From a virus (lineage: Duplodnaviria; Caudoviricetes), in IMG/VR virus record IMGVR_UViG_3300019752_000008, positions 1 through 60,812 of that record: 60,812 nt of DNA, one strand, 5' to 3'. The position numbers and the translations under genes were made by a program. How positions within the stretch are numbered: the stretch's first letter is position 1; each line of letters starts with the position of its first letter. The notes beneath the pieces were generated by a model. The model did not search any database and was not told where the DNA came from. It saw only the letters and a list, made by a program, of their open reading frames with translations. Of this stretch, positions 4,901 to 60,812 are shown piece after piece.

Positions 4901-7900
4901 TAGTATAGACAGTGAGTTCGATATAGATTCACTTGCTTGGTCTGAGTCACCTAGTACTGAACCTGTGCCTATATTTGCTACTTGTGAAGCGTGTGCATCG
5001 TATGATGATGATACTGATGTTGTTCCTGCTCCAAACGCTATCCCTGCTTGAGACAGTGTTGTTGCTACCATTGCAGCTACTGCTATTGCTCTTGGTATTG
5101 CTGTATATACATCACCGCTTGACATCTGATGTACTACTGCTGTTGCACCTTCAACTACTGCAAGTGCTGATTGAACCGCTTGCAGTCCTGCTGCTTCTCG
5201 ACTGCCTTGTTCAAATAAAGCTGATGATGCACCTGCTATTTGACCTATCATTTTAAGTTCGTTTTCTTTGCCTTCTACTTTATCTCTTTGATACTGTGCT
5301 GTTATATCCGCAAAGCTCATTAGTACTTGTGCTTCTTTTTTTATACCTGAATCAGATGATGATATGATTGAGTTCATATCATTTATATCATCTATTATTT
5401 TATCCATTCCTTCTAGTTTTATTTTTATAGGATCGATTCTTATTTTTTTAAACTCTGACTCTATTTTATTTATCCATTTCAAAAGGTCATTTTCTTGATC
5501 TGAGCCTTCATATATATCAAACAGTCCTGCGAACATTTCTCCTCTTGTTTCTGGACTCATACCGAACGTGTCTATATCTCTTGTTATATTTGCCACAGAT
5601 TGAGACTTAGCTATACTTTTTTCTATTTTGTCAAAATTATCAGCAAGACTTAAACTTTCTTTATTAGACTTTGCTAATTCTTTAGACATGGTTTCAAATT
5701 TAGTAATTATATTATCTGGGTCTGCTTCCTGTGCGGATATTCTCTCTGCTTCCATTTCATCTCTGAAATCTTTTAGTGTTTTTTTCTTTTTATCAGCGGT
5801 TTCTTTATTTATTTTTGCAATGTCTTTTTGTAGCTCTTTGATAAGTTCTAAAGCTTCTATTTGCTCTTTTTTGTATTCCTTTTTAGACTCTTTATCTGAC
5901 GATTGAAGTATTGCTTTGTCCGTATCAGATATAAACTTTCTTACTTTAGCTATCTCTTGATCTATCTTCCATATCTCGCCTTTTCTTTCTATAGTGGCTT
6001 CTTCGATTTTTTTTCTTACATCGTCATCAAATCCGATTGAAGCTTCCAGTTGTGTTTTCTTTTTAAGTGCCTTTACTCTTTTGTTTGCCTCTTCTATTTG
6101 CTCAGGAACATTATTTATTCTGTCTTGTATCTCGTCAAAGGCTTTATTATATGCACTTATATTTTCTATATGAGTCTGAATAAAAGACTTTTCAAGAGTG
6201 CCATATCTATCATATCCTTTCGTGATGACATCTGTAGATACTTTTATTCTATCACTTATGCTTTGCCTTTCACTTATCAGGTCGTCTCTCGAAGCACCTT
6301 TTTTATATTCTGATACTAAACTTTTTGACCAGTCTACTTTTCTTTCTTCTTGTATTGCAGTTTTATAATCATGAAATTCTTTTAATAAAACAATAACTCC
6401 TGTAATTCCAGCAGCCCATAATGTAAAAGGATTAGGAAAAGGATTTATAGCTGAAAACACATCTTTTATTTTATCTATTTTTCTTACTTTTTTTAGTGTT
6501 CCATCCGCGTTTTTGCCTGCTAGTTCCCAATATCCTGCAAATGTTTTTACACCATCTACTGCTCTTGACCCTATCTCGAACCCTGCTCTTGTTGCTTGAA
6601 AACCTTTATATGCTACAAACATCTCTATTAGTGTTTTAACATAAGGCTCTGCATCTTTTACAAACTGATATGCACTTCTAAAAGTATCTCTTATCTCTGC
6701 ACCATTTTCTTTTAGTATTTGCAACAACTCTTTTGCGGAATCTTTAATATCATCAAAAAGAGGTTTTGCAGAATCCATCATTAGCTCTTGCCACTCTGCT
6801 TTTAGCTTATCCATTGCTCTTTGATAGGTGTCTATATGTTTAAGATTCTCAAACATTTTAAGTCTATCTTTCATTACGTTATAAACTGCACCCACGCTAT
6901 CTTCTGCGTTTTTCTTTGCGTCTTTTATTGCTTTGTTTGCTTGTGTCGGAGTTCCAAATAATAATATTGCAAGTTTTGAATCTCTTGATACGTCTCCCGA
7001 AAATAACGATCTTGCTTCCTCTAATACTAGCTCTGCATTCATTCCTACTGCACTACCCATATTTGTAAGCGATGATGTTATTTCTATTGTGTTATCTATG
7101 ATATCTTGAGTTGTTTTACCAAACCCTTGACCCATCTTTAAAGCGAATCCTATTGACTGTTGAAATACACTTGAAAGCTCTGGAAAGGTTGCTGATGTCT
7201 CTTTTGCAGCATCTTTTAAGTCTAGCATTGTTTTTTGCGAAAGCGAAAGCGAAGCATTAAATCTATCAGTTCCGTTTCCTACTTCGCCTTGGCTATCTAC
7301 AAGTTTTGTATTTGTTGCTATAAGTGCGGCAAGACCAAATGAATTATTTTCTATAGTTTTGTTAAGCTCAACACCCATTCCAATAGTAGCACGATATGCA
7401 CTTACCAGTGCGTATATTCCTATTGCTAAAGTTTCCACTTGTCTTAAATGTCTTACTAATGTATTTGTTGCACTACCCGTAGCTTTTGAGTGTGCCTTTT
7501 GTGCTAAAGTTGCCTCTTTTAGCCTAGCTTTTTCTTTTTCTAGTGCAGTAGCGTATTTTTCTCCCCCTATAGCTCCTGCTTTTTTCATAGTGTTTAGTTT
7601 TTTTACTGCTGAATTATAATTATTTGTTGCTGTTGTGTTTTCGTATAACCGTTGATATTCTTCTTTTAGTGATTTTTTATTTAGTTCTGTTTCTTCTCTG
7701 GCTTTTCTTTTTGCTATTGTTTCTTTATTTAGTGATTGTATTTTTTCTTTTTGTAGCTTTTCAAGAGTGTTTGATGCCTCTTTTTCTATTTGTATTTGCT
7801 TGTCTAGCAGTGTTTCTGCTTCTGCTATTTGATTTTGTTTTGTTTTAAGTTCGCTATTTGCGAAACTTCTAATTTTATTGTTTTTTTCTTTTAATTGGTC

Positions 7901-8443
7901 TAACTCTTGTTTTATTGCCTGTTCTTGTTTTGCGTAAGTTGTTCTAATTCTGCTTGCATCTATTGCTAATAAATCTGATGTTAGTTTTTCTTTTTGTGCA
8001 ATAATCCTTTCGTTTAATTTTTTACTTTGTTCTATATCTGAAACTAAAGACGTAGATGGCATTGCTCCTGATGCTGTTGAAACTTTGTGTTGTTTCATAA
8101 GTGATTCCATCTTTTGATGATTCTTTAATTCTAGACTTTCTATTTGTTGAAGCTGTATTTTTTTGTTGTTAACTTGCTTATTAAGCTCTGTTTTTTGAGC
8201 CTTTGTGTATCCTGAAAGTGTAGTTGATAGTGTAAGTATATCTTTTCTTCTGTTGTTTGTTAATTCTTTTAAAGCAGACGTTAAATCTCTTTCGGATTTC
8301 TCCATAGTTTTATTATCTGCTTTAAAAGTATCAGCAGTTTTTTGATGGACAGACCTGTACTCTTCAAGTGTTTTACTTATTGCTTTTATATCTTTTGTTG
8401 CTAGGTCTTTTACTTTTAGCGTTGTGGTTATATCTGCCATCAA
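1937..8443 (-). CDS. Tail tape measure protein
   Basis: 2168 aa, helical/coiled-coil; C-terminal GSHYSGLANVPFDGYRAELHKDERVLT motif; follows the chaperone pair. Confidence 0.92.
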   Translation of the reverse strand: MMADITTTLKVKDLATKDIKAISKTLEEYRSVHQKTADTFKADNKTMEKSERDLTSALKELTNNRRKDILTLSTTLSGYTKAQKTELNKQVNNKKIQLQQIESLELKNHQKMESLMKQHKVSTASGAMPSTSLVSDIEQSKKLNERIIAQKEKLTSDLLAIDASRIRTTYAKQEQAIKQELDQLKEKNNKIRSFANSELKTKQNQIAEAETLLDKQIQIEKEASNTLEKLQKEKIQSLNKETIAKRKAREETELNKKSLKEEYQRLYENTTATNNYNSAVKKLNTMKKAGAIGGEKYATALEKEKARLKEATLAQKAHSKATGSATNTLVRHLRQVETLAIGIYALVSAYRATIGMGVELNKTIENNSFGLAALIATNTKLVDSQGEVGNGTDRFNASLSLSQKTMLDLKDAAKETSATFPELSSVFQQSIGFALKMGQGFGKTTQDIIDNTIEITSSLTNMGSAVGMNAELVLEEARSLFSGDVSRDSKLAILLFGTPTQANKAIKDAKKNAEDSVGAVYNVMKDRLKMFENLKHIDTYQRAMDKLKAEWQELMMDSAKPLFDDIKDSAKELLQILKENGAEIRDTFRSAYQFVKDAEPYVKTLIEMFVAYKGFQATRAGFEIGSRAVDGVKTFAGYWELAGKNADGTLKKVRKIDKIKDVFSAINPFPNPFTLWAAGITGVIVLLKEFHDYKTAIQEERKVDWSKSLVSEYKKGASRDDLISERQSISDRIKVSTDVITKGYDRYGTLEKSFIQTHIENISAYNKAFDEIQDRINNVPEQIEEANKRVKALKKKTQLEASIGFDDDVRKKIEEATIERKGEIWKIDQEIAKVRKFISDTDKAILQSSDKESKKEYKKEQIEALELIKELQKDIAKINKETADKKKKTLKDFRDEMEAERISAQEADPDNIITKFETMSKELAKSNKESLSLADNFDKIEKSIAKSQSVANITRDIDTFGMSPETRGEMFAGLFDIYEGSDQENDLLKWINKIESEFKKIRIDPIKIKLEGMDKIIDDINDMNSIISSSDSGIKKEAQVLMSFADITAQYQRDKVEGKENELKMIGQIAGASSALFEQGSREAAGLQAVQSALAVVEGATAVVHQMSSGDVYTAIPRAIAVAAMVATTLSQAGIAFGAGTTSVSSSYDAHASQVANIGTGSVLGDSDQASESISNSLSILEDMAVPQHRLTSQMADHLASIDKKIGGLSANILKAAGFAVGEGYVGFESSTGQDLTVEKIWGTIDKISPFLGTISQAGDIFNDLTGGITNTILGGLFGGGSSTSRTLADAGLTFQSQLIEAAIGNLQGKSYQTILTRIEKDGGWFGSDSVTNIYNTQLRGLERETKRQFELVLGSLYDTVITSGGALDVATEDVKAELSDFYVELGKISLKGKTGEEIQETLTNIFGKVGDEMALEAFPVLESFQKIGEGMFETLTRVSAGMEQAEYFINRLGYDFEDAEYLDIVNKQGVVSIEALTQSIIKYDESVYGANNSVVQMIDMINTSAEDVFETYEAFNDLRDQLSLMGQDATYLTSQMLLGAGGLEELSDAMSNYYENFINDNDKLVLSTQKMNNEFKKLNLAMPVGSNGFKDLVEGIDISTEAGQELYGRVLLLSDGFAELSDQAKSLLDDERDNALELASLREKYQEEQLGFFNTAIDAVRNLSNTFDNMINSIDDTIASLLGASDSADAQDVLIQTFWAKKAETELLLAKDGDLTDTESRRLQALIGDIQGLSTNIQNANIGDNTQITGELVNELSYLQNELNFDNQILKAQIVTASGQDIDVSTDGVLTELSKNMAEYNRTIAEKLTQDSTLEFSDFKAGGLLSTADEIAFRQSFQAESASTFSKELEDLRVNLAYLSLETVNTTDFLTDLSSANNVGYKNIIEFFTSMGEIPQEIKTVDMISNWNNLISSGDFEGFAKSGALQDEDFMSDTFEDYRDILNANLVGYEDYAKKYMNFDELLKYMDASKLQEEGRFWNLEALKDFMTAYADEGFKSMKEHMGFYTSAYTSGTFDSSMLNQEILDSIEDFHGGLNTELSAWKAYADGIKELGGYQYSEAQVENLLENARWYLEEAGYKALDGSHYSGLANVPFDGYRAELHKDERVLTARENRIYTNNLTSNNNKDIIVELRRIDARLASVENISKSINGILDSAKTSRPFRTKVVA

Positions 8444-50949: not shown

Positions 50950-51942
50950 ATGACAAATAAACCAATACATAAGTTAGGACTTCCTTATATGGGTAGCAAA
51001 AGAAAGTTAGCAAAACCAATAATTGATTATATATTAAAACATAATCTAAATACTAAATATTTTTATGATGTATTTGGCGGTGGCGGTGCCATGAGTTTAG
51101 AAGCTATTCAAAGACCCAAAATAAAAGAAGTTTTTTATAATGATTTTAATACAGGTATAACTGAGCTTTTAAAAAAACTTGCCAAAGATGGTGTAGTAGG
51201 TGAGATGTATAAGTGGATAGATAGAGATACTTTTAAAAAGCATAAAGATGATGATACTTGGTATGGTGGATATTTAGCTACTGTTTGGAGTTTTGGAAAT
51301 AATAAAGATAAAGGGTATCTGTACGGAGCAGATATAGAAGAGGACAAAAAACTACTCCATAAAATTATAGTTTTTTCTTGCCAAGACTCTCTTAATATTT
51401 TAAATAACAAATATAATATTGGTATAAATCTTAATAATGGTATTTTTAAAGAAGATGTCATCCAAAGAAGACTTAGAATTGTTTCGGAAATTAAATCCTT
51501 TATTTGCTCTGATAATAGCAATCCTCTGGTGCAACATCTTATTATGATAGAGTCTTTAACACGACTACAGAACCTACAGAACCTACAGAACCTACAGAAC
51601 CTACAGAACCTACAGATATCGAATCTAAGCTACGAAAAAGTAAACATAACTACTGATCCTAAAGAAACTATAATATTTCTTGATCCACCTTATATAGATA
51701 CTGCAAAATACACTAAAGGAATTTGCCATAAGGAACTTTATGATTGGATTGAGCAACTTACCGATAAAGGATATAAAGTTTATCTTACAAGCTACGAAAG
51801 TCCTTTAATATGTGTAAAAGAATTTAAACATAGAAGTACGCTATCTGCAACTGCTAACAATGAGGTAACCGAGAAACTATTTAGTAATTTTAAGGATGTT
51901 ATAGAGCCTGAAAAAGTTATGACACAGGGGAGTCTATTTTAA
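50950..51942 (+). CDS. D12-class N6-adenine DNA methyltransferase
   Basis: PYMGSK, DVFGGGG, DPPY. Confidence 0.9.
   Translation: MTNKPIHKLGLPYMGSKRKLAKPIIDYILKHNLNTKYFYDVFGGGGAMSLEAIQRPKIKEVFYNDFNTGITELLKKLAKDGVVGEMYKWIDRDTFKKHKDDDTWYGGYLATVWSFGNNKDKGYLYGADIEEDKKLLHKIIVFSCQDSLNILNNKYNIGINLNNGIFKEDVIQRRLRIVSEIKSFICSDNSNPLVQHLIMIESLTRLQNLQNLQNLQNLQNLQISNLSYEKVNITTDPKETIIFLDPPYIDTAKYTKGICHKELYDWIEQLTDKGYKVYLTSYESPLICVKEFKHRSTLSATANNEVTEKLFSNFKDVIEPEKVMTQGSLF
51565..51615 (+). repeat. 9-bp tandem repeat CTACAGAAC (LQN)n
   Basis: 5 units plus a partial unit, in frame. Confidence 0.95.
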
Positions 51943-56458: not shown

Positions 56459-57154
56459 GTGGAAAAGATTAAATTTCTAGAACTATATGCAGGAAGTGGA
56501 GGCATGGGTGATATTGCCCGTGCTTTAGGATATGAGGTTTTTAGTATAGATTGGGAGGATTATGAAAATGTTGACTTGCAAATGGATATCGCTAAGTTAA
56601 AGATTAGTGATTTACCTTGGATTCCTGATATTGTTCATATGAGTCCCGACTGTACAACATATAGTATTGCTGCTATTTCGACTCATAGAAATAAACATGA
56701 CAGAAGTGGAAAAACAGAATATGCAAAGCAATGTGACGCTACTAATTTGCATACTCAAAACCTGTTAAAAGAGTTGTTAATTTTAAATCCAAATTTGGTT
56801 TACTATATTGAAAATCCTAGAGGTGGTATGAGAAAGATGGATTTTATGGATTATTATCCTATTAGACATACGGTTTGGTATTGTCAGTATGGAGATGATA
56901 GAGCTAAGCCTACTGACATTTGGACTAACAATAAAGGCTGGATTCCTCGCCCTATGTGTCATAATAAGAAAAAAGATAAAGACGGTAATGTTATCCATCA
57001 TTGCCATCACGAGTCTGCTCCTAGAGGGTCTAAGACTGGAACTCAAGGGAAAAATTTGAGTTACGAAAGAAGTAAGATACCTCTTCAATTATGTGCTGAG
57101 ATTTTGATATCTCCCAGAATGCCCGTAGATAAAAAAGAAGGTGTCTTGTTTTGA
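56459..57154 (+). CDS. C5-cytosine DNA methyltransferase-like
   Basis: LELYAGSG, SPDC, IENP, YCQYG...KPT.IW, RSKIP. Confidence 0.85.
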   Translation: MEKIKFLELYAGSGGMGDIARALGYEVFSIDWEDYENVDLQMDIAKLKISDLPWIPDIVHMSPDCTTYSIAAISTHRNKHDRSGKTEYAKQCDATNLHTQNLLKELLILNPNLVYYIENPRGGMRKMDFMDYYPIRHTVWYCQYGDDRAKPTDIWTNNKGWIPRPMCHNKKKDKDGNVIHHCHHESAPRGSKTGTQGKNLSYERSKIPLQLCAEILISPRMPVDKKEGVLF

Positions 57155-57164
57155 CACTTCTTTT
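57133..57164. terminator. Bidirectional terminator
   Basis: AAAGAAGGTGTC-loop-GACACTTCTTT between convergent genes. Confidence 0.7.
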
Positions 57165-57810
57165 ATTTTGACATCTCCAAGTGGGACATTCTATTGTCCC
57201 ATCCGCTTAAATATCTACCGTATTTGTCTGGATTTGATTTCCATAATTTTATATATATAGATTTCATATTTGATAACATTCTTGTTTCAAAGTGATACCC
57301 TTCGCTTTCTAGGCTAGTTATAAAATCTAGTCCATTCTTTGTTTTTTCACCATACGAGCCATCTATTGATGATAAGTTGCTAGGAAAGTTAAATATTACA
57401 CTCATTTCCAATAGAGCTTCTTGCACTGCTTTCCATGCGTTTTTAGGGCTATTTGTATACATAGAGTACATAGCTACTTGACATTCTTTTGGAAATAGTT
57501 CCATATGTGCATCTTTTAAAAAGTCTCTGTAGAACCCTTCTGCTAGTTGTTGCACACCATAAGCTGATTTCTCAACTAGACTATTTACTATTTTTATATC
57601 ATCATTATTCCACTCTTTTGTATCTTTGTCTATATCTAAACTTTCAGCTAACTCCACTATATACTGATACATTCTTGAATTTGGTTTTAGATATATACCA
57701 TATGGACAAGTTATGTCCTCTTCACCTTCATTTCGGTGAACTAGTTTACTTTCTACTTCACCTATGTATTTTACTACTTCTTTTATATCTTTCATTTTAT
57801 ATTCCTGCAC
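57163..57810 (-). CDS. Endolysin, GH108-like with PG-binding C-terminus
   Basis: E......T.PYGI, IDGSYGEKT, GWDNR. Confidence 0.8.
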   Translation of the reverse strand: MQEYKMKDIKEVVKYIGEVESKLVHRNEGEEDITCPYGIYLKPNSRMYQYIVELAESLDIDKDTKEWNNDDIKIVNSLVEKSAYGVQQLAEGFYRDFLKDAHMELFPKECQVAMYSMYTNSPKNAWKAVQEALLEMSVIFNFPSNLSSIDGSYGEKTKNGLDFITSLESEGYHFETRMLSNMKSIYIKLWKSNPDKYGRYLSGWDNRMSHLEMSK

Positions 57811-58070: not shown

Positions 58071-58625
58071 TTATATTCTTTTACTATCAGCTTCTGTTTT
58101 GCTTGATCCAAAATAGAATGCAAGAACATATCCAAGAGACAGTGTTAGTGAGTTGTTTATACCTACTATTACTGTTTGATTTAGTTCTTCCGTAGCTCCT
58201 ATAAGCATTGAAAACCATAGTCCAAAAGTAGATACTACTACAAAAATTGCTATTATACTGCCTGTATTTCTTACTAGCCAATCTTTTGATGACTGTAGAT
58301 TTACGTTCATTTTTCTTGATGAGTCTTTGTCTTTTAACACTTCTGATGTATTAAATTCATCATGACGATTATCTTCTTTTTTATTTTCAAGTGCTAATTT
58401 TTCTAATTCTATTTTATCACTTGATTCTAGCTCTTGAAGTTTTACTATCTGCTCATTTGTTAAGCCGTTTTTTTTCACATCTTCTGATGATAGGTCGATA
58501 CCTGTTTTTTTTGATACATAATCTATCGCTTTATCTGCTCCACCTTCTATTGCGTTTTTTACTACATTTAGTCCTTTGTCTGCTAACATTGAAGTTATTG
58601 CTGCTATTGCTCCTGCTATTATCAT
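58071..58625 (-). CDS. Holin (GTA 3TM-like)
   Basis: D..S.R.M, two C-terminal TM helices, YFGSS. Confidence 0.8.
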   Translation of the reverse strand: MIIAGAIAAITSMLADKGLNVVKNAIEGGADKAIDYVSKKTGIDLSSEDVKKNGLTNEQIVKLQELESSDKIELEKLALENKKEDNRHDEFNTSEVLKDKDSSRKMNVNLQSSKDWLVRNTGSIIAIFVVVSTFGLWFSMLIGATEELNQTVIVGINNSLTLSLGYVLAFYFGSSKTEADSKRI

Positions 58626-58628
58626 CTA

Positions 58629-59102
58629 TTACCCTTTCTTTATTAATTCTATTGCTACTTTTACTAAGTCGTTAGCAATTCTTAGTTTTTTAAAAACATC
58701 ATCGTCACAGTCAGTTTCTTTTTTAACTATCATCTCTTCTATTTTATTATATATCTTTCCTATATCTATAATCGGTTTTTTTACTATAGATATACACTCT
58801 ATTCCTTCATAGTTACAAAGAAGATCACTGTATGCAGACATTATCACTATAGGTATTACTTTTATATGTTTTTTACTCATTACATATTCTATTAAATCTG
58901 ACCCTGTTCCAAATCCGTTTACTGTTGGCATATTAATATCCGTGATAAGCACATCAATGTTTTCTTTCTCTATAATATCCCTTGCTTCACTTCCATCATT
59001 TGCTCCAATTACTGTACAATACAACTTTTTAAGTTCTCTCTCTAAAGATAGCCTTACTATTGCTTCATCTTCTGCTATGAGTATCGTTAGATTCTTTTTC
59101 AT
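58629..59102 (-). CDS. Stand-alone CheY-like response regulator receiver domain
   Basis: ILIAEDE, LITDINMP, IMSAY, KP all intact; ATGA overlap at 59102. Confidence 0.9.
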   Translation of the reverse strand: MKKNLTILIAEDEAIVRLSLERELKKLYCTVIGANDGSEARDIIEKENIDVLITDINMPTVNGFGTGSDLIEYVMSKKHIKVIPIVIMSAYSDLLCNYEGIECISIVKKPIIDIGKIYNKIEEMIVKKETDCDDDVFKKLRIANDLVKVAIELIKKG

Positions 59103-59452
59103 TTTAAAATCCATGTTAAAACCGCTGTTATCACTATAGACAACAATGTTCCAAAAATTGTAAGTATTTTAGTAATCTTTCCATAATCACTTCTCTCTAC
59201 AATTAATTTAACCTGATTCTCTAGCTTTTCTCTTGCTTCATCTGTATTTAGATACGCTTGAACCTCTTTTAAAGCTCTTTTTTTAAACTCATCATCTAGG
59301 TCATTGTTGTTTTTTATCAAGTCCAAAACTTCTTCTTTAAAGTTTTTTCTCCATTCCAAAAGCTCTTGATACTTTTCTTCTAGTCTTGGAACTTCGCTTG
59401 TGTTTTTGGATATTTCAGTTAGTATGTCAAGTAGTTTTTCATCTTCGTTCAT
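59099..59452 (-). CDS. Coiled-coil protein with C-terminal TM helix
   Basis: Hydrophobic ILTIFGTLLSIVITAVLTW tail. Confidence 0.7.
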   Translation of the reverse strand: MNEDEKLLDILTEISKNTSEVPRLEEKYQELLEWRKNFKEEVLDLIKNNNDLDDEFKKRALKEVQAYLNTDEAREKLENQVKLIVERSDYGKITKILTIFGTLLSIVITAVLTWILK

Positions 59453-59943
59453 TAGAACTCTTTCCTTAATCCAAATTTAGCCACGGACACTTTAGGTGTG
59501 ACCATCCCGTCCATGTAAAAATATTCTCCAAATCTAAGCCCTATAGTAGCTCCTACAGCTAAACCTGAATTTTTCTCACCTTCTTTGCATCTATGAAGAT
59601 TTATACCACCACAATATCCCTCTTGATATCCTATGTATCCTGTTGTGTTTATGGCTATTGTGTCGTTTATTTTATACTCTAGCTCGTGTACAGTGCCCCA
59701 GTATTCCGTTGGTGCTTCGTAAGAGTTTCGTTCCATCTTATAGTGCGACAAGCCGTAAGAGTAGTATTTGTTGTATCTTTTAAATATAGATATTCCTCTT
59801 CCTTTGTTATCAAAGCCTTCTAGGAGGTTCATGTCTTTTAATTTATCGCTATGTTTTGAATAACTAACTAAATCTTTTTTTACGTGATAATTACTTGCAA
59901 AACTTGATGCAATTATTCCGAATAATAAAATTAACTTTTTCAC
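59452..59943 (-). CDS. Exported small outer-membrane beta-barrel, PagP-like
   Basis: Signal peptide, amphipathic strands, terminal Phe, H...G.G...NSY pattern. Confidence 0.55.
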   Translation of the reverse strand: MKKLILLFGIIASSFASNYHVKKDLVSYSKHSDKLKDMNLLEGFDNKGRGISIFKRYNKYYSYGLSHYKMERNSYEAPTEYWGTVHELEYKINDTIAINTTGYIGYQEGYCGGINLHRCKEGEKNSGLAVGATIGLRFGEYFYMDGMVTPKVSVAKFGLRKEF

Positions 59944-60362: not shown

Positions 60363-60812
60363 TTACAGCCCGCTAATTGATACATAATTAGGTCTTTTAT
60401 TAATTGCTGTCAATATGGCTGTTATTCCATGATGTACCCCATTATTAAACGGCACATAATACACATATCTGCCGTCATATACCGCTCCTTGAAAACCTTT
60501 GGCTCCTGAGTTTCCTAATGATAAATCTATGTAGGCTACTGAATTGTCTGTAGTGTCTAGTATGGCTGTTATACCATGATATACCCCAGTGTAAAAAGGA
60601 ACATAATACACATATCTGCCGTCATATACCGCTCCTCTGAAACCCCTAGCATTTGAGTTTCCTAATGATAAATCTATGTAGGTTACTGAATTGTCTGTAG
60701 TGTCTAGTATGGCTGTTATTCCAAAATATGCCCCATTGTAATAAGGAACATAATACACATATCTGCCGTCATATACCGCTCCTTGAAAACCTTTGGCTCC
60801 TGAGTTTCCTAA
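60363..60812 (-). CDS. Tail fibre, C-terminal part with 49-aa GAVYDGRYVYYVP (beta-propeller-like) repeats
   Basis: Same repeat and same frame as 1-748 once the 43-bp overlap is merged; followed by a fibre-chaperone-like gene. Confidence 0.8.
   Translation of the reverse strand, partial: LGNSGAKGFQGAVYDGRYVYYVPYYNGAYFGITAILDTTDNSVTYIDLSLGNSNARGFRGAVYDGRYVYYVPFYTGVYHGITAILDTTDNSVAYIDLSLGNSGAKGFQGAVYDGRYVYYVPFNNGVHHGITAILTAINKRPNYVSISGL
60413..60812. repeat. 147-bp tandem repeat units (right part); last 43 bp identical to bases 1-43
   Basis: CATATACCGCTCC at 60476, 60623 and 60770 (147-bp period). Confidence 0.95.

Follow-up and report, generated by a model that had tools for sequence, protein, structure and literature searches.

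Results

A response-regulator receiver is encoded among lysis genes

The window, the whole stretch of DNA that was analysed, is a phage genome of 60,812 bp (denoted G000; 100% complete). It carries a group of genes encoding a tail-anchored coiled-coil protein (CC-TM), a single-domain response-regulator receiver, a membrane protein that we designate TM184, a short helical protein and an endolysin (Table 1). Directly upstream of CC-TM in the window is a gene for a secreted protein, which is not kept beside the receiver and CC-TM genes in other phages and for which no family was matched in Pfam, PHROG and NCBIfam searches. No tRNA genes were found in the phage genome, and the phage terminase is at most 30% identical to the terminases of known phages.

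Table 1. Features of the receiver locus, with their positions in the window.
Feature	Position	Strand	Basis or remark
Secreted outer-membrane-barrel-like protein, 163 aa (context only)	59452..59943	-	signal peptide; ends ...KEF
Tail-anchored coiled-coil protein (CC-TM), 117 aa	59099..59452	-	ORF and hydropathy
Single-domain response-regulator receiver, 157 aa	58629..59102	-	PF00072 match, PDB receiver matches
Membrane protein TM184, holin candidate, 184 aa	58071..58625	-	phrog_1544; neighbour genes of relatives
Soluble helical ORF, 89 aa	57797..58066	-	between TM184 and endolysin; 112 aa from TTG at 58135
Endolysin, GH108-like muramidase with PG_binding_3-like C-terminal part	57163..57810	-	relatives and fold
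Terminator-like hairpin	57139..57159	both	consensus scan

The ORF of the receiver spans 161 codons (58629-59114, minus strand). The ATG at 59102 yields the 157-aa protein, and the homologues begin at the Met equivalent to this start. Pfam family PF00072 matched residues 11-118 of the 161-aa form with 55.4 bits (E 8.1e-15; curated cut-off 30.2), and a genome-wide PF00072 search recovered the protein again, at 55.6 bits, as the sole receiver of the genome. A PDB sequence search returned 26 receiver sequences at E<=1e-5. The phospho-site residues E11-D12, the phosphoacceptor D55 (within TDINMP; codon 58938-58940), S89 and K109-P110, in the numbering of the 157-aa form, occupy the same positions as in the PDB receivers, bearing out the initial annotation, which had described a CheY-like protein with all key residues in place. 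The protein also has a 4-residue insertion after the DxxMP loop and an extra helix of ~35 amino acids at its C-terminus. An AF2 model of moderate confidence (mean pLDDT 66, pTM 0.64) contains beta1-5, alpha1-3, alpha5 and the extra helix (136-156); in this model residues 90-102, where alpha4 is expected, are of low confidence and non-helical. No NCBIfam equivalog cut-off was reached by the receiver: its matches to 84 families all run through the receiver domain alone and fall far short; the best score was 46, for PleD, and CpdR scored 39.8, where 474 and 180 are required.

Searches with HATPase_c and HisKA gave no match at E<=1 in the window or in a related-module genome, G001 (94% complete), while their controls matched in 14 and 13 of 14 genomes, respectively. 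The receiver is thus an orphan, with no cognate kinase encoded by the phage, as had been noted before. Residues E11, D12, D55, S89, K109 and P110 are invariant in all five close family members at ~50% identity, and so are C96, C103 and C132; the phospho-site residues are kept in 18/18 aligned phage receiver-only sequences. Among the matches listed in genome and metagenome contig scans with receiver alignments, there were only ordinary cellular regulators of 26-47% identity. A GenBank phage tblastn with the receiver gave weak or contaminant matches only, a GenBank phage blastn gave nothing useful, and IMG/VR scans that used a single protein as query (receiver, TM184 or endolysin) found nothing. 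Judged by its conservation, the receiver is intact, and is neither a stray nor a decaying host pickup: its phospho-site residues are invariant in 5/5 members, it stays with its partner on 5/5 contigs, and the pair stands at the head of lysis genes.

The receiver and CC-TM make up a two-gene module

CC-TM has a cytoplasmic helical part of ~90 amino acids and a C-terminal transmembrane (TM) segment, with nothing beyond it. The initial annotation had pointed to an ATGA overlap of the receiver gene with a gene for a C-terminally anchored coiled-coil protein. The codons read directly agree, the ATG of the receiver (59100-59102) lying over the TGA of CC-TM (59099-59101), as does the hydrophobic stretch at residues 91/92-117. 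A CC-TM homologue is encoded at the L082 locus (27% identity over 110 amino acids, E 1e-12), and there, as in the window, the CC-TM and receiver genes are adjacent and overlapping. The CC-TM family comprises four clusters, and all six aligned members are 117 amino acids long. Both proteins are encoded together on 5/5 contigs of the close family, and members of the two families lie on Logan contigs of equal size (three contigs of 16,859, 11,663 and 3,949 bp). A third, diverged pair is present in L202, where the receiver is 33% identical (E 3e-18) and a remote CC-TM homologue was detected (hhalign probability 79%, E 1.5e-5). The window and G001 have only four proteins in common at E<1e-4, namely Erf, SSB, CC-TM and the receiver, suggesting that the module moves as a unit. 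Together, the alignments and the overlapping codons indicate that the receiver and CC-TM are a conserved, translationally coupled module of two genes.

Pfam holds no family for CC-TM, and the XhlA family (PF10779) was not among its matches at E<=0.1. An Atlas feature search scored CC-TM at 0.88 to a cluster with XhlA in 43% of its members, which, given the tool's bar of 0.9, is a lead only. We rejected CC-TM as a His-phosphotransfer (DHp-like) protein: the family has no conserved His, and the CC-TM of the window has no His at all. Among the N-anchored partners of receivers in Alteromonas phages, described below, every protein carries a His behind its TM segment; these His do not align. Complex prediction for the receiver with residues 1-92 of CC-TM gave an ipSAE of 0.01 in both runs, which were made without controls.

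A holin candidate and an endolysin gene follow the receiver gene

The stop codon of the receiver gene (58629-58631) and the start codon of TM184 (58623-58625) are separated by 3 nucleotides, the spacing reported initially. TM184 consists of a long charged N-terminal part followed by a C-terminal part with two hydrophobic segments (~120-146; 152-170 or beyond) and a charged tail. Its only match is phrog_1544 (E 8.6e-10), a PHROG family of unassigned function; Pfam holin families gave no match at E<=0.1 for TM184 or for any of 40 relatives. We found 175 relatives at E<=1e-3, 143 of them in IMG/VR; GenBank phage tblastn with TM184 returned one relative. Neighbouring genes were counted at 80 IMG/VR loci with relatives, of which 73 had a next ORF. 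Peptidase_M15_3 was matched by this directly downstream ORF in 54/73 cases, GH108 in 7/73 (PG_binding_3 in 8) and GH19 in 5/73, and the TM184 relative in MW202484 is directly upstream of a GH19 gene. With its TM segments, charged C-terminal tail and association with endolysin genes, TM184 has both the architecture and the context of a holin. We regard TM184 (phrog_1544) as a well-supported holin candidate, by association. The holin call of the initial annotation is therefore strengthened as to the role, through the endolysin genes downstream of the relatives, while no named holin family stands behind it. The 125-aa membrane protein of L082, tried as a further relative of TM184, showed no significant similarity (E 0.021).

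An endolysin gene had also been placed behind the holin. It is there, identified by relatives and fold and with no Pfam match of its own, but an 89-aa ORF that had been missed lies in between. This ORF gave no significant family in Pfam and PHROG, and no counterpart of it was seen in L083, L178 and L202, where the endolysin comes directly after the holin candidate. The endolysin is the last gene of the late operon and has 215 amino acids from GTG 57810 or 210 from ATG 57795. It has 15 homologues. PG_binding_3 (PF09374) is matched by 13 of the 16 aligned family members and PF05838 by none of them; the window copy matches neither at E<=0.1. The family motif E...E-x-D-I-T-x-P-Y-G-I is invariant, with a putative resemblance to the GH108 motif. 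In a Foldseek search with the AF2 model (pLDDT 89.3), the top 10 PDB matches were all of GH108 type (Sen1395, TtsA, NMB1012, SagA), with E 2.3e-3 to 6.6e-2, probability 0.98-1.00 and target-normalised TM 0.44-0.66. By its predicted fold, the endolysin is GH108-like. The NCBIfam holin-associated N-acetylmuramidase matched it weakly (E 0.0017, far below the cut-off), GenBank phage tblastn found no relative of it, and PDB sequence searches with the endolysin family profile and with the L083 partner returned nothing relevant. The late operon end is marked by a terminator-like hairpin between the endolysin gene and a convergent methyltransferase gene on the plus strand; the consensus scan found 3 such sites, compared with 1.4 expected.

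Receiver genes adjoin lysis genes in other phages

The initial annotation had called for a survey of the neighbourhoods of phage receiver-only genes. Of the 17 receiver-seeded phage loci, 14 have such a gene beside lysis-type genes, those of the cultured Alteromonas phages V22, A5 and R9Y1 among them; the 14 amount to ~6 lineages, and the sample is small and partly redundant. L200 and L202-204 are biased, because they were found through the holin query. Burkholderia phage vB_E427 (annotated CDS of ~230 aa) and L194 (231-aa ORF) were left out of the receiver-only set, since their regulators are longer than receiver-only genes. At three loci (L084-L086, high GC) no lysis gene was seen nearby; these records gave no GH108 or Phage_lysozyme match, the GH108 search having matched in none of its controls.

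The genes that follow the module vary. In the window they are TM184 and, past the 89-aa ORF, the GH108-like endolysin gene; in L083, an ATGA-coupled TM184-like gene and then a GH108-like gene; and in L202, a TM184-like gene and then an M15-type ORF. L082 has genes for a 241-aa membrane protein, the 125-aa membrane protein and an Amidase_2 (72.4 bits), so that a 155-nt gap and the 241-aa gene stand between the receiver and the holin-like gene. These gene orders support the view that the module heads lysis genes of varying endolysin type in phages that share almost nothing else.

V22 gp30 (MN877442), A5 gp11 (OP481051) and R9Y1 gp12 (OM287554) are receiver-only proteins of 147-150 amino acids with a C-terminal extension. 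As in the window, a gene for a membrane-anchored helical protein of ~120 amino acids comes before the receiver, spanin-, holin-like or endolysin genes come after it, and tail-fibre genes lie upstream. In V22-like loci, the N-anchored helical protein and the receiver are followed by an Rz-like spanin (phrog_4297, 3.1e-5), a lipobox ORF, a 2-TM ORF and an endolysin (phrog_894, 2.9e-22); in A5-like loci the same two genes precede genes similar to the V22-like set, and in R9Y1 a GH108 lysozyme gene (85 bits). The similarity of these receivers to that of the window is marginal (BLAST E 0.14-0.54, small database). The anchors are N-terminal whereas that of the window is C-terminal, there is no detectable similarity between them, and the downstream lysis genes differ. 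Across lineages the receivers are 23-33% identical to one another, compared with 35-38% to the best cellular matches among those listed; as they are no closer to one another than to cellular receivers, common descent of a 'lysis receiver' is not established. The comparison supports analogous receiver-plus-anchor pairs in three lineages of Alteromonas phages, each pair standing at the head of a lysis cassette.

Our literature search found no description that links a PF00072 receiver to phage lysis, in agreement with the premise of the initial annotation that standard lysis cassettes contain no receiver. CheY-like genes so placed have, however, been published for phages V22 and A5, where they are read as auxiliary metabolic genes of a host-recognition module; in the A5 paper (PMC10579305), the CheY-like gene forms a group with the fibre, chaperone and adjoining genes that V22, A5 and P24 have in common. 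The published grouping, and the position of the pair downstream of fibre or baseplate genes in all loci inspected, would suit an accessory gene with no part in lysis, either of the tail-fibre/host-recognition module or a generic moron, which travels horizontally with the fibre genes and adjoins lysis genes incidentally. We consider this quite unlikely, given that the fibre-side neighbours change from phage to phage (OMP-like gene; 93-/94-aa ORFs; 2-TM ORF; chaperone; C92-like amidase; none) whereas the lysis side is tightly coupled, by the 3-nt gap, ATGA overlaps or overlaps of 26-35 nt (annotated or called), and that the window and G001 have the pair in common and not the fibre genes.

Single-domain receivers can act as phosphate sinks. 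The pair might accordingly be a membrane-tethered sink or decoy that, late in infection, drains the two-component signalling of the host or blocks it (e.g. envelope-stress, chemotaxis or abortive responses) and is co-expressed with lysis genes while exerting no control over the holin; the orphan receiver keeps its phospho-site intact and lacks an output domain, and the anchor would put it at the membrane, beside host sensor kinases. Such a sink is in our estimate unlikely, as it leaves unexplained both the place of the pair before holin, spanin or endolysin genes at 14/17 loci, with overlapping stop and start codons, and its persistence there when the endolysin type changes.

The receiver is present at only 4/80 loci with TM184 relatives and at 1/8 loci with the GH108-like endolysin. 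Such an optional gene is more in keeping with a regulator than with a core component of lysis. In prophage PBSX of Bacillus subtilis, XhlA is encoded just upstream of the holin XhlB and is required together with XhlB and the endolysin XlyA (PMC5589764, PMC10630273). As described there, XhlA of PBSX and the XhlA-type genes of Enterococcus phage cassettes have the architecture of CC-TM, an N-terminal coiled coil and a C-terminal anchor; these cassettes have no receiver and belong to Gram-positive hosts, whereas the host here is probably diderm. The shared architecture, with the Atlas lead, would be in keeping with a structural lysis factor independent of phosphorylation, in which an XhlA-like anchor helps the holin and the receiver is a constitutive adaptor with a pocket that binds a metal or a partner; the invariant C96, C103 and C132, too, hint at another type of switch. 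This we hold to be very unlikely. The phosphorylation residues are invariant across ~50% divergence and kept in every one of the 18 sequences, full retention of the phospho-site is unusual for pseudo-receivers, and, at 4/80 loci, the receiver is too rare to be structurally required in general.

Discussion

We propose that the receiver-anchor pair is a phosphorylation-gated accessory regulator of the phage lysis cassette, a reading to which we give slightly less than an even chance; its phosphorylation, its binding and its effect on the holin are what we infer. Late in infection, the anchor, the receiver, the holin candidate, the 89-aa protein and the endolysin would be transcribed from the end of the structural operon. 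The anchor would keep its cytoplasmic coiled coil at the inner membrane, and a host donor, presumably a histidine kinase or acetyl phosphate, would phosphorylate the kinase-less receiver on Asp55. The phosphorylation state may then set the docking of the receiver on the anchor, on the long cytoplasmic N-terminal part of TM184, or on both, probably through the extra C-terminal helix. Docking would advance or delay holin triggering, thereby tying the time of lysis to host signalling or the energy state of the host. The initial annotation had likewise suggested a host kinase or acetyl phosphate as donor, with the TM protein as a possible antiholin or adaptor. XhlA-XhlB of PBSX offers a precedent by analogy for a tail-anchored coiled-coil accessory that acts with a holin. 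Accessory ('moron') genes commonly occupy the slot between the tail-fibre genes and the lysis genes, and adjacency alone is therefore weak evidence.

The phage receiver resembles CheY, Spo0F, DivK and CpdR, which work through protein contacts and not DNA binding, in consisting of a receiver domain only, with the full acidic pocket, phospho-Asp, Ser/Thr and Lys-Pro. It differs from them in that its genome encodes no kinase, it carries an extra C-terminal helix, it is coupled to an anchor and it lies in a lysis cassette. Antiholins and lysis-timing regulators include lambda S107, T4 RI/RIII and P1 LydB. Like the proposed pair, they are additional products, encoded within or close to the lysis cassette, by which holin triggering is delayed or tuned. 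The lysis regulator gp62 of phage N4 also faces the cytoplasm (PMC12642591). Neither it nor lambda S107, T4 RI/RIII or P1 LydB is known to have a two-component receiver domain. We rejected the 'Receiver domain' of N4 as a PF00072 precedent, the term being the authors' label for a pinholin region (PMC12642591). The staphylococcal LytSR pathway, which acetyl phosphate can likewise drive, is reported to be linked to the holin/antiholin-like membrane proteins LrgAB/CidAB (PMC4830213). LytSR is cellular, has a kinase of its own and acts on transcription through a DNA-binding regulator, whereas the phage receiver has neither kinase nor DNA-binding domain.

More broadly, a kinase-less receiver together with a tethered coiled coil could represent an undescribed class of lysis regulator, in which a phospho-switch fed by the host gates the lysis clock. 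Such a class would have arisen repeatedly, by assembly with anchors that are unrelated to one another (C-terminal, N-terminal and one with a periplasmic CxxCH domain), and would read the phosphorylation or energy state of the host to set holin firing. We advance this generalisation tentatively and, on balance, lean against it.

The timing of lysis determines both the burst size and the fitness of a phage, and the lysis regulators known so far (antiholins and T4 lysis inhibition) react to the energy of the membrane or to superinfection. If the proposal is true, a receiver placed among the lysis genes would connect host two-component or acetyl-phosphate signalling directly to the lysis decision, a link that we did not find described in the literature. 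A direct test of the idea is within reach, since cultured Alteromonas phages whose hosts are known (V22, A5, R9Y1) have the same layout. Until now, their receiver gene has been interpreted as an auxiliary metabolic gene. The large unnamed family of phage membrane proteins to which TM184 belongs (phrog_1544) gains a functional label, that of holin candidate. The same layout in several unrelated phages suggests that host signalling may help to time lysis.

Results

The receiver in the late operon

The window (60,812 bp, the whole virus record; 31.1% G+C) carries on its minus strand a late operon that runs from the terminase and portal region, past a putative tape-measure ORF of fitting size (2,168 aa), to a repeat-rich fibre gene spanning the record's ends. 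Downstream of the fibre gene every intergenic gap is at most about 30 nt, and a terminator-like hairpin follows the gene of the 215-aa protein, facing a convergent methyltransferase gene. The lysis-operon order of the initial annotation stands for the receiver, the 184-aa membrane protein (TM184) and the 215-aa protein, but it had overlooked an 89-aa ORF, and its labels "holin" and "endolysin" were guesses.

Features of the window and of compared IMG/VR loci
Feature	Location	Strand
Window
Fibre-like gene, crossing the record's ends; repeated units of about 45 aa	1-748 and 60363-60812	-
131-aa ORF	60335-59940	-
163-aa secreted ORF, outer-membrane-barrel-like	59943-59452	-
117-aa coiled-coil protein with C-terminal hydrophobic anchor	59452-59099	-
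Receiver	59102-58629	-
TM184	58625-58071	-
89-aa ORF	58066-57797	-
215-aa protein (endolysin candidate)	57810-57163	-
Terminator-like hairpin	57139-57159	
DNA methyltransferase (phrog_757, 7.5e-29)	56459-57154	+
DNA methyltransferase (phrog_56, 1e-43)	50950-51942	+
Other loci
174-aa partner, L083 (IMGVR_UViG_3300007776_000030)	7474-7998	+
241-aa membrane protein, L082	8627-9352	+
266-aa membrane protein, L202	1585-2385	+
Lipobox ORF, L186	4744-5034	+
Lipobox ORF, L188	4744-5043	+
Lipobox ORF, L189	4723-5055	+

Both ends of the record carry an exact 43-nt repeat that sits within the fibre-gene repeat units, and the same 40-mer recurs at 60476; the apparent direct terminal repeat may reflect the gene's internal repeat, and the number of fibre units is uncertain. 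The 163-aa ORF, which matches no family of Pfam, PHROGs or NCBIfam, starts with a signal peptide and ends in ...KEF. These features resemble a small, moron-like outer-membrane barrel, which suggests a diderm host.

The receiver is CheY-like with intact motifs, as first described: it matches PF00072 at 55.4 bits (cut-off 30.2), hits 26 receiver sequences in the PDB (E<=1e-5) and keeps E11-D12, D55 in TDINMP, S89 and K109-P110 (157-aa numbering). The ATGA overlap with the upstream 117-aa gene and the 3-nt spacer before the TM184 gene can both be read directly in the window. HATPase_c and HisKA are absent from the genome at E<=1 (controls positive in 14/14 and 13/14 genomes), bearing out the first observation that no histidine kinase is recognisable in it. 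The phospho-site residues are invariant, together with three cysteines, in 5/5 close homologues, and the phospho-site is kept in 18/18 aligned phage receivers; that the protein is a phosphorylation-independent adaptor seems to us quite improbable. The cysteines (C96, C103 and C132) are missing in the receivers of L083, L202 and the Alteromonas phages. They could make up a redox or metal site, and it is precisely around them that the AF2 model has low confidence.

Holin and endolysin candidates

TM184 matches only phrog_1544, to which PHROGs assigns no function, and neither it nor any of 40 relatives matches a Pfam holin family. A search of 1.84 billion representative proteins gave 175 relatives (E<=1e-3), and scanning IMG/VR with a narrow TM184 alignment gave 143, from which 80 loci were kept. 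The next downstream ORF, callable in 73 of these and mostly overlapping the stop codon, matches Peptidase_M15_3 in 54, GH108 in 7 (PG_binding_3 in 8) and GH19 in 5; in GenBank MW202484 a relative lies immediately 5' of a GH19 gene. TM184 is a membrane protein that has two hydrophobic segments near its C terminus and a charged tail, and its family directly precedes endolysins of three unrelated enzyme classes; it is very probably a holin, a label drawn from gene association and not from a Pfam family.

The 215-aa protein has no Pfam match of its own. It has 15 homologues, and PG_binding_3 is matched by 13 of the 16 aligned members. The AlphaFold model from this alignment (pLDDT 89.3) has GH108-type muramidases (Sen1395, TtsA, NMB1012, SagA) as its best ten PDB matches, at probabilities of 0.98-1.00 and modest E-values (2.3e-3 to 6.6e-2). 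These relatives and this predicted fold lead us to class the protein as a divergent GH108-like endolysin, in line with its first label.

Receiver and anchor as a module

Close receiver homologues form only two clusters among 5.8 billion clustered proteins (55% identity), with one more (52%) at locus L082, where the receiver is overlapped upstream by a 117-aa protein 27% identical to the window anchor over 110 residues, ungapped. An anchor profile search returned four clusters, with 117 aa in 6/6 aligned members; their Logan contigs (16,859, 11,663 and 3,949 bp) have the sizes of the receiver-homologue contigs. Receiver and anchor thus occur together on 5/5 contigs, the pairing in three being drawn solely from equal size in bp. 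The L082 phage genome (41,940 bp at 94% completeness, 30.6% G+C, encoding Baseplate_J) has just four proteins in common with the window at E<1e-4, namely Erf, SSB, anchor and receiver, indicating from sequence comparison that the pair moves as a unit. With the anchor as tether, the receiver might be a membrane-tethered phosphate sink, which we consider rather unlikely.

In L082 the pair follows baseplate/fibre-region genes and precedes 241-aa and 125-aa membrane proteins and an Amidase_2 endolysin (72.4 bits). The L083 receiver (209 aa, 32% identical to the window's, PF00072 83.7 bits) is ATGA-coupled to a TM184 relative followed by a GH108-like endolysin, and is preceded by a 174-aa protein that has a coiled coil at its N terminus and a single TM segment (59-80). 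The C-terminal part of this partner has a CxxCH motif; a weak Pfam Cytochrome_CBB3 match (E 0.0011, 19.7 bits) lies under the cut-off of 27, and no match was found among PDB sequences. It may be a periplasmic haem-binding sensor.

L202-L204 were reached through the TM184 query and not the receiver query. In L202 the anchor family is matched (hhalign probability 79%, E 1.5e-5) by a 136-aa coiled-coil protein with a tail anchor, whose gene overlaps that of a 161-aa receiver (33% identity, E 3e-18); a TM184 relative and an M15-type ORF come next. L203 and L204 have the same sizes of receiver, TM184 relative and next ORF, L202 alone having been examined in detail. The 241/266-aa membrane protein (phrog_9573; weak DUF7338 match) adjoins the module 3' in L082 and 5' in L202, and may belong to an extended cassette. 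A receiver occurs in 4/80 loci with TM184 relatives and 1/8 with a GH108-like endolysin; as judged from these loci, it is optional there.

Alteromonas phages and locus count

Cultured Alteromonas phages V22 (MN877442) and A5 (OP481051) were reached via the literature, and their GenBank records and related IMG/VR loci were compared. V22-like loci have fibre, chaperone, a weak C92-like amidase, a 120-125-aa N-terminally anchored helical protein, receiver, an Rz-like spanin (phrog_4297, 3.1e-5) and a 2-TM ORF, followed in L186 and L187 by an endolysin (phrog_894, 2.9e-22); an overlapping lipobox ORF was called in L186, L187 and L188. The A5-like order is anchored protein, receiver, spanin-like gene (lipobox ORF overlapping in L189), 2-TM ORF and annotated endolysin. 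R9Y1-like loci (OM287554) have fibre, a 121-aa anchored protein, receiver and a GH108 lysozyme (85 bits) overlapping the receiver stop codon. The lipobox ORFs, which overlap the Rz-like spanin gene at its 3' end as in Rz/Rz1-type pairs, are o-spanin candidates missing from the V22 and A5 GenBank annotations. Similarity of these receivers to the window's is marginal (E 0.14-0.54), and their anchors have no detectable relationship to the window anchor. Fibre genes are recurrent neighbours; that the pair is a fibre-module accessory or moron is nevertheless unlikely.

Loci found by the receiver query with a receiver-only gene numbered 17 (window, L082-L086, V22/L185, L186-L189, A5, R9Y1, L190-L193). 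In 14, which make up about six lineages and so a small sample, the gene adjoins lysis-type genes, but L084-L086 (high G+C, one a provirus) have no recognisable lysis gene. In the phage collection many receiver matches come from short contigs lacking annotation, or from records annotated with common bacterial regulators such as NtrC, OmpR or CreB; such records (OR84xxxx, Listeria, Staphylococcus and Enterococcus "phage" contigs; CAKLQ...; AFYI01000005) look like bacterial DNA under phage names.

Discussion

We tentatively read the pair as a phosphorylation-gated lysis regulator, with somewhat less than even confidence, because it is tightly coupled to holin, spanin or endolysin genes and stays in place through changes of lytic enzyme. 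That the pair is dispensable argues for a regulator rather than a core lysis part. All three kinds of anchor domain are predicted to lie in the cytoplasm by the positive-inside rule, which is consistent with this reading, as is, by analogy, the tail-anchored holin helper of PBSX, XhlA, with its holin XhlB, described in PMC5589764 and PMC10630273.

In our literature search no paper connected phage lysis with a PF00072 receiver; the "Receiver domain" of N4 (PMC12642591) is unrelated to that family. The words holin and endolysin are absent from the main texts of the V22 and A5 papers (A5, PMC10579305). The existence of the gene in Alteromonas phages is already published, and its link to lysis, as suggested by gene neighbourhoods, would be new: the receiver-anchor pair would regulate phage lysis, gated by phosphorylation of the receiver.
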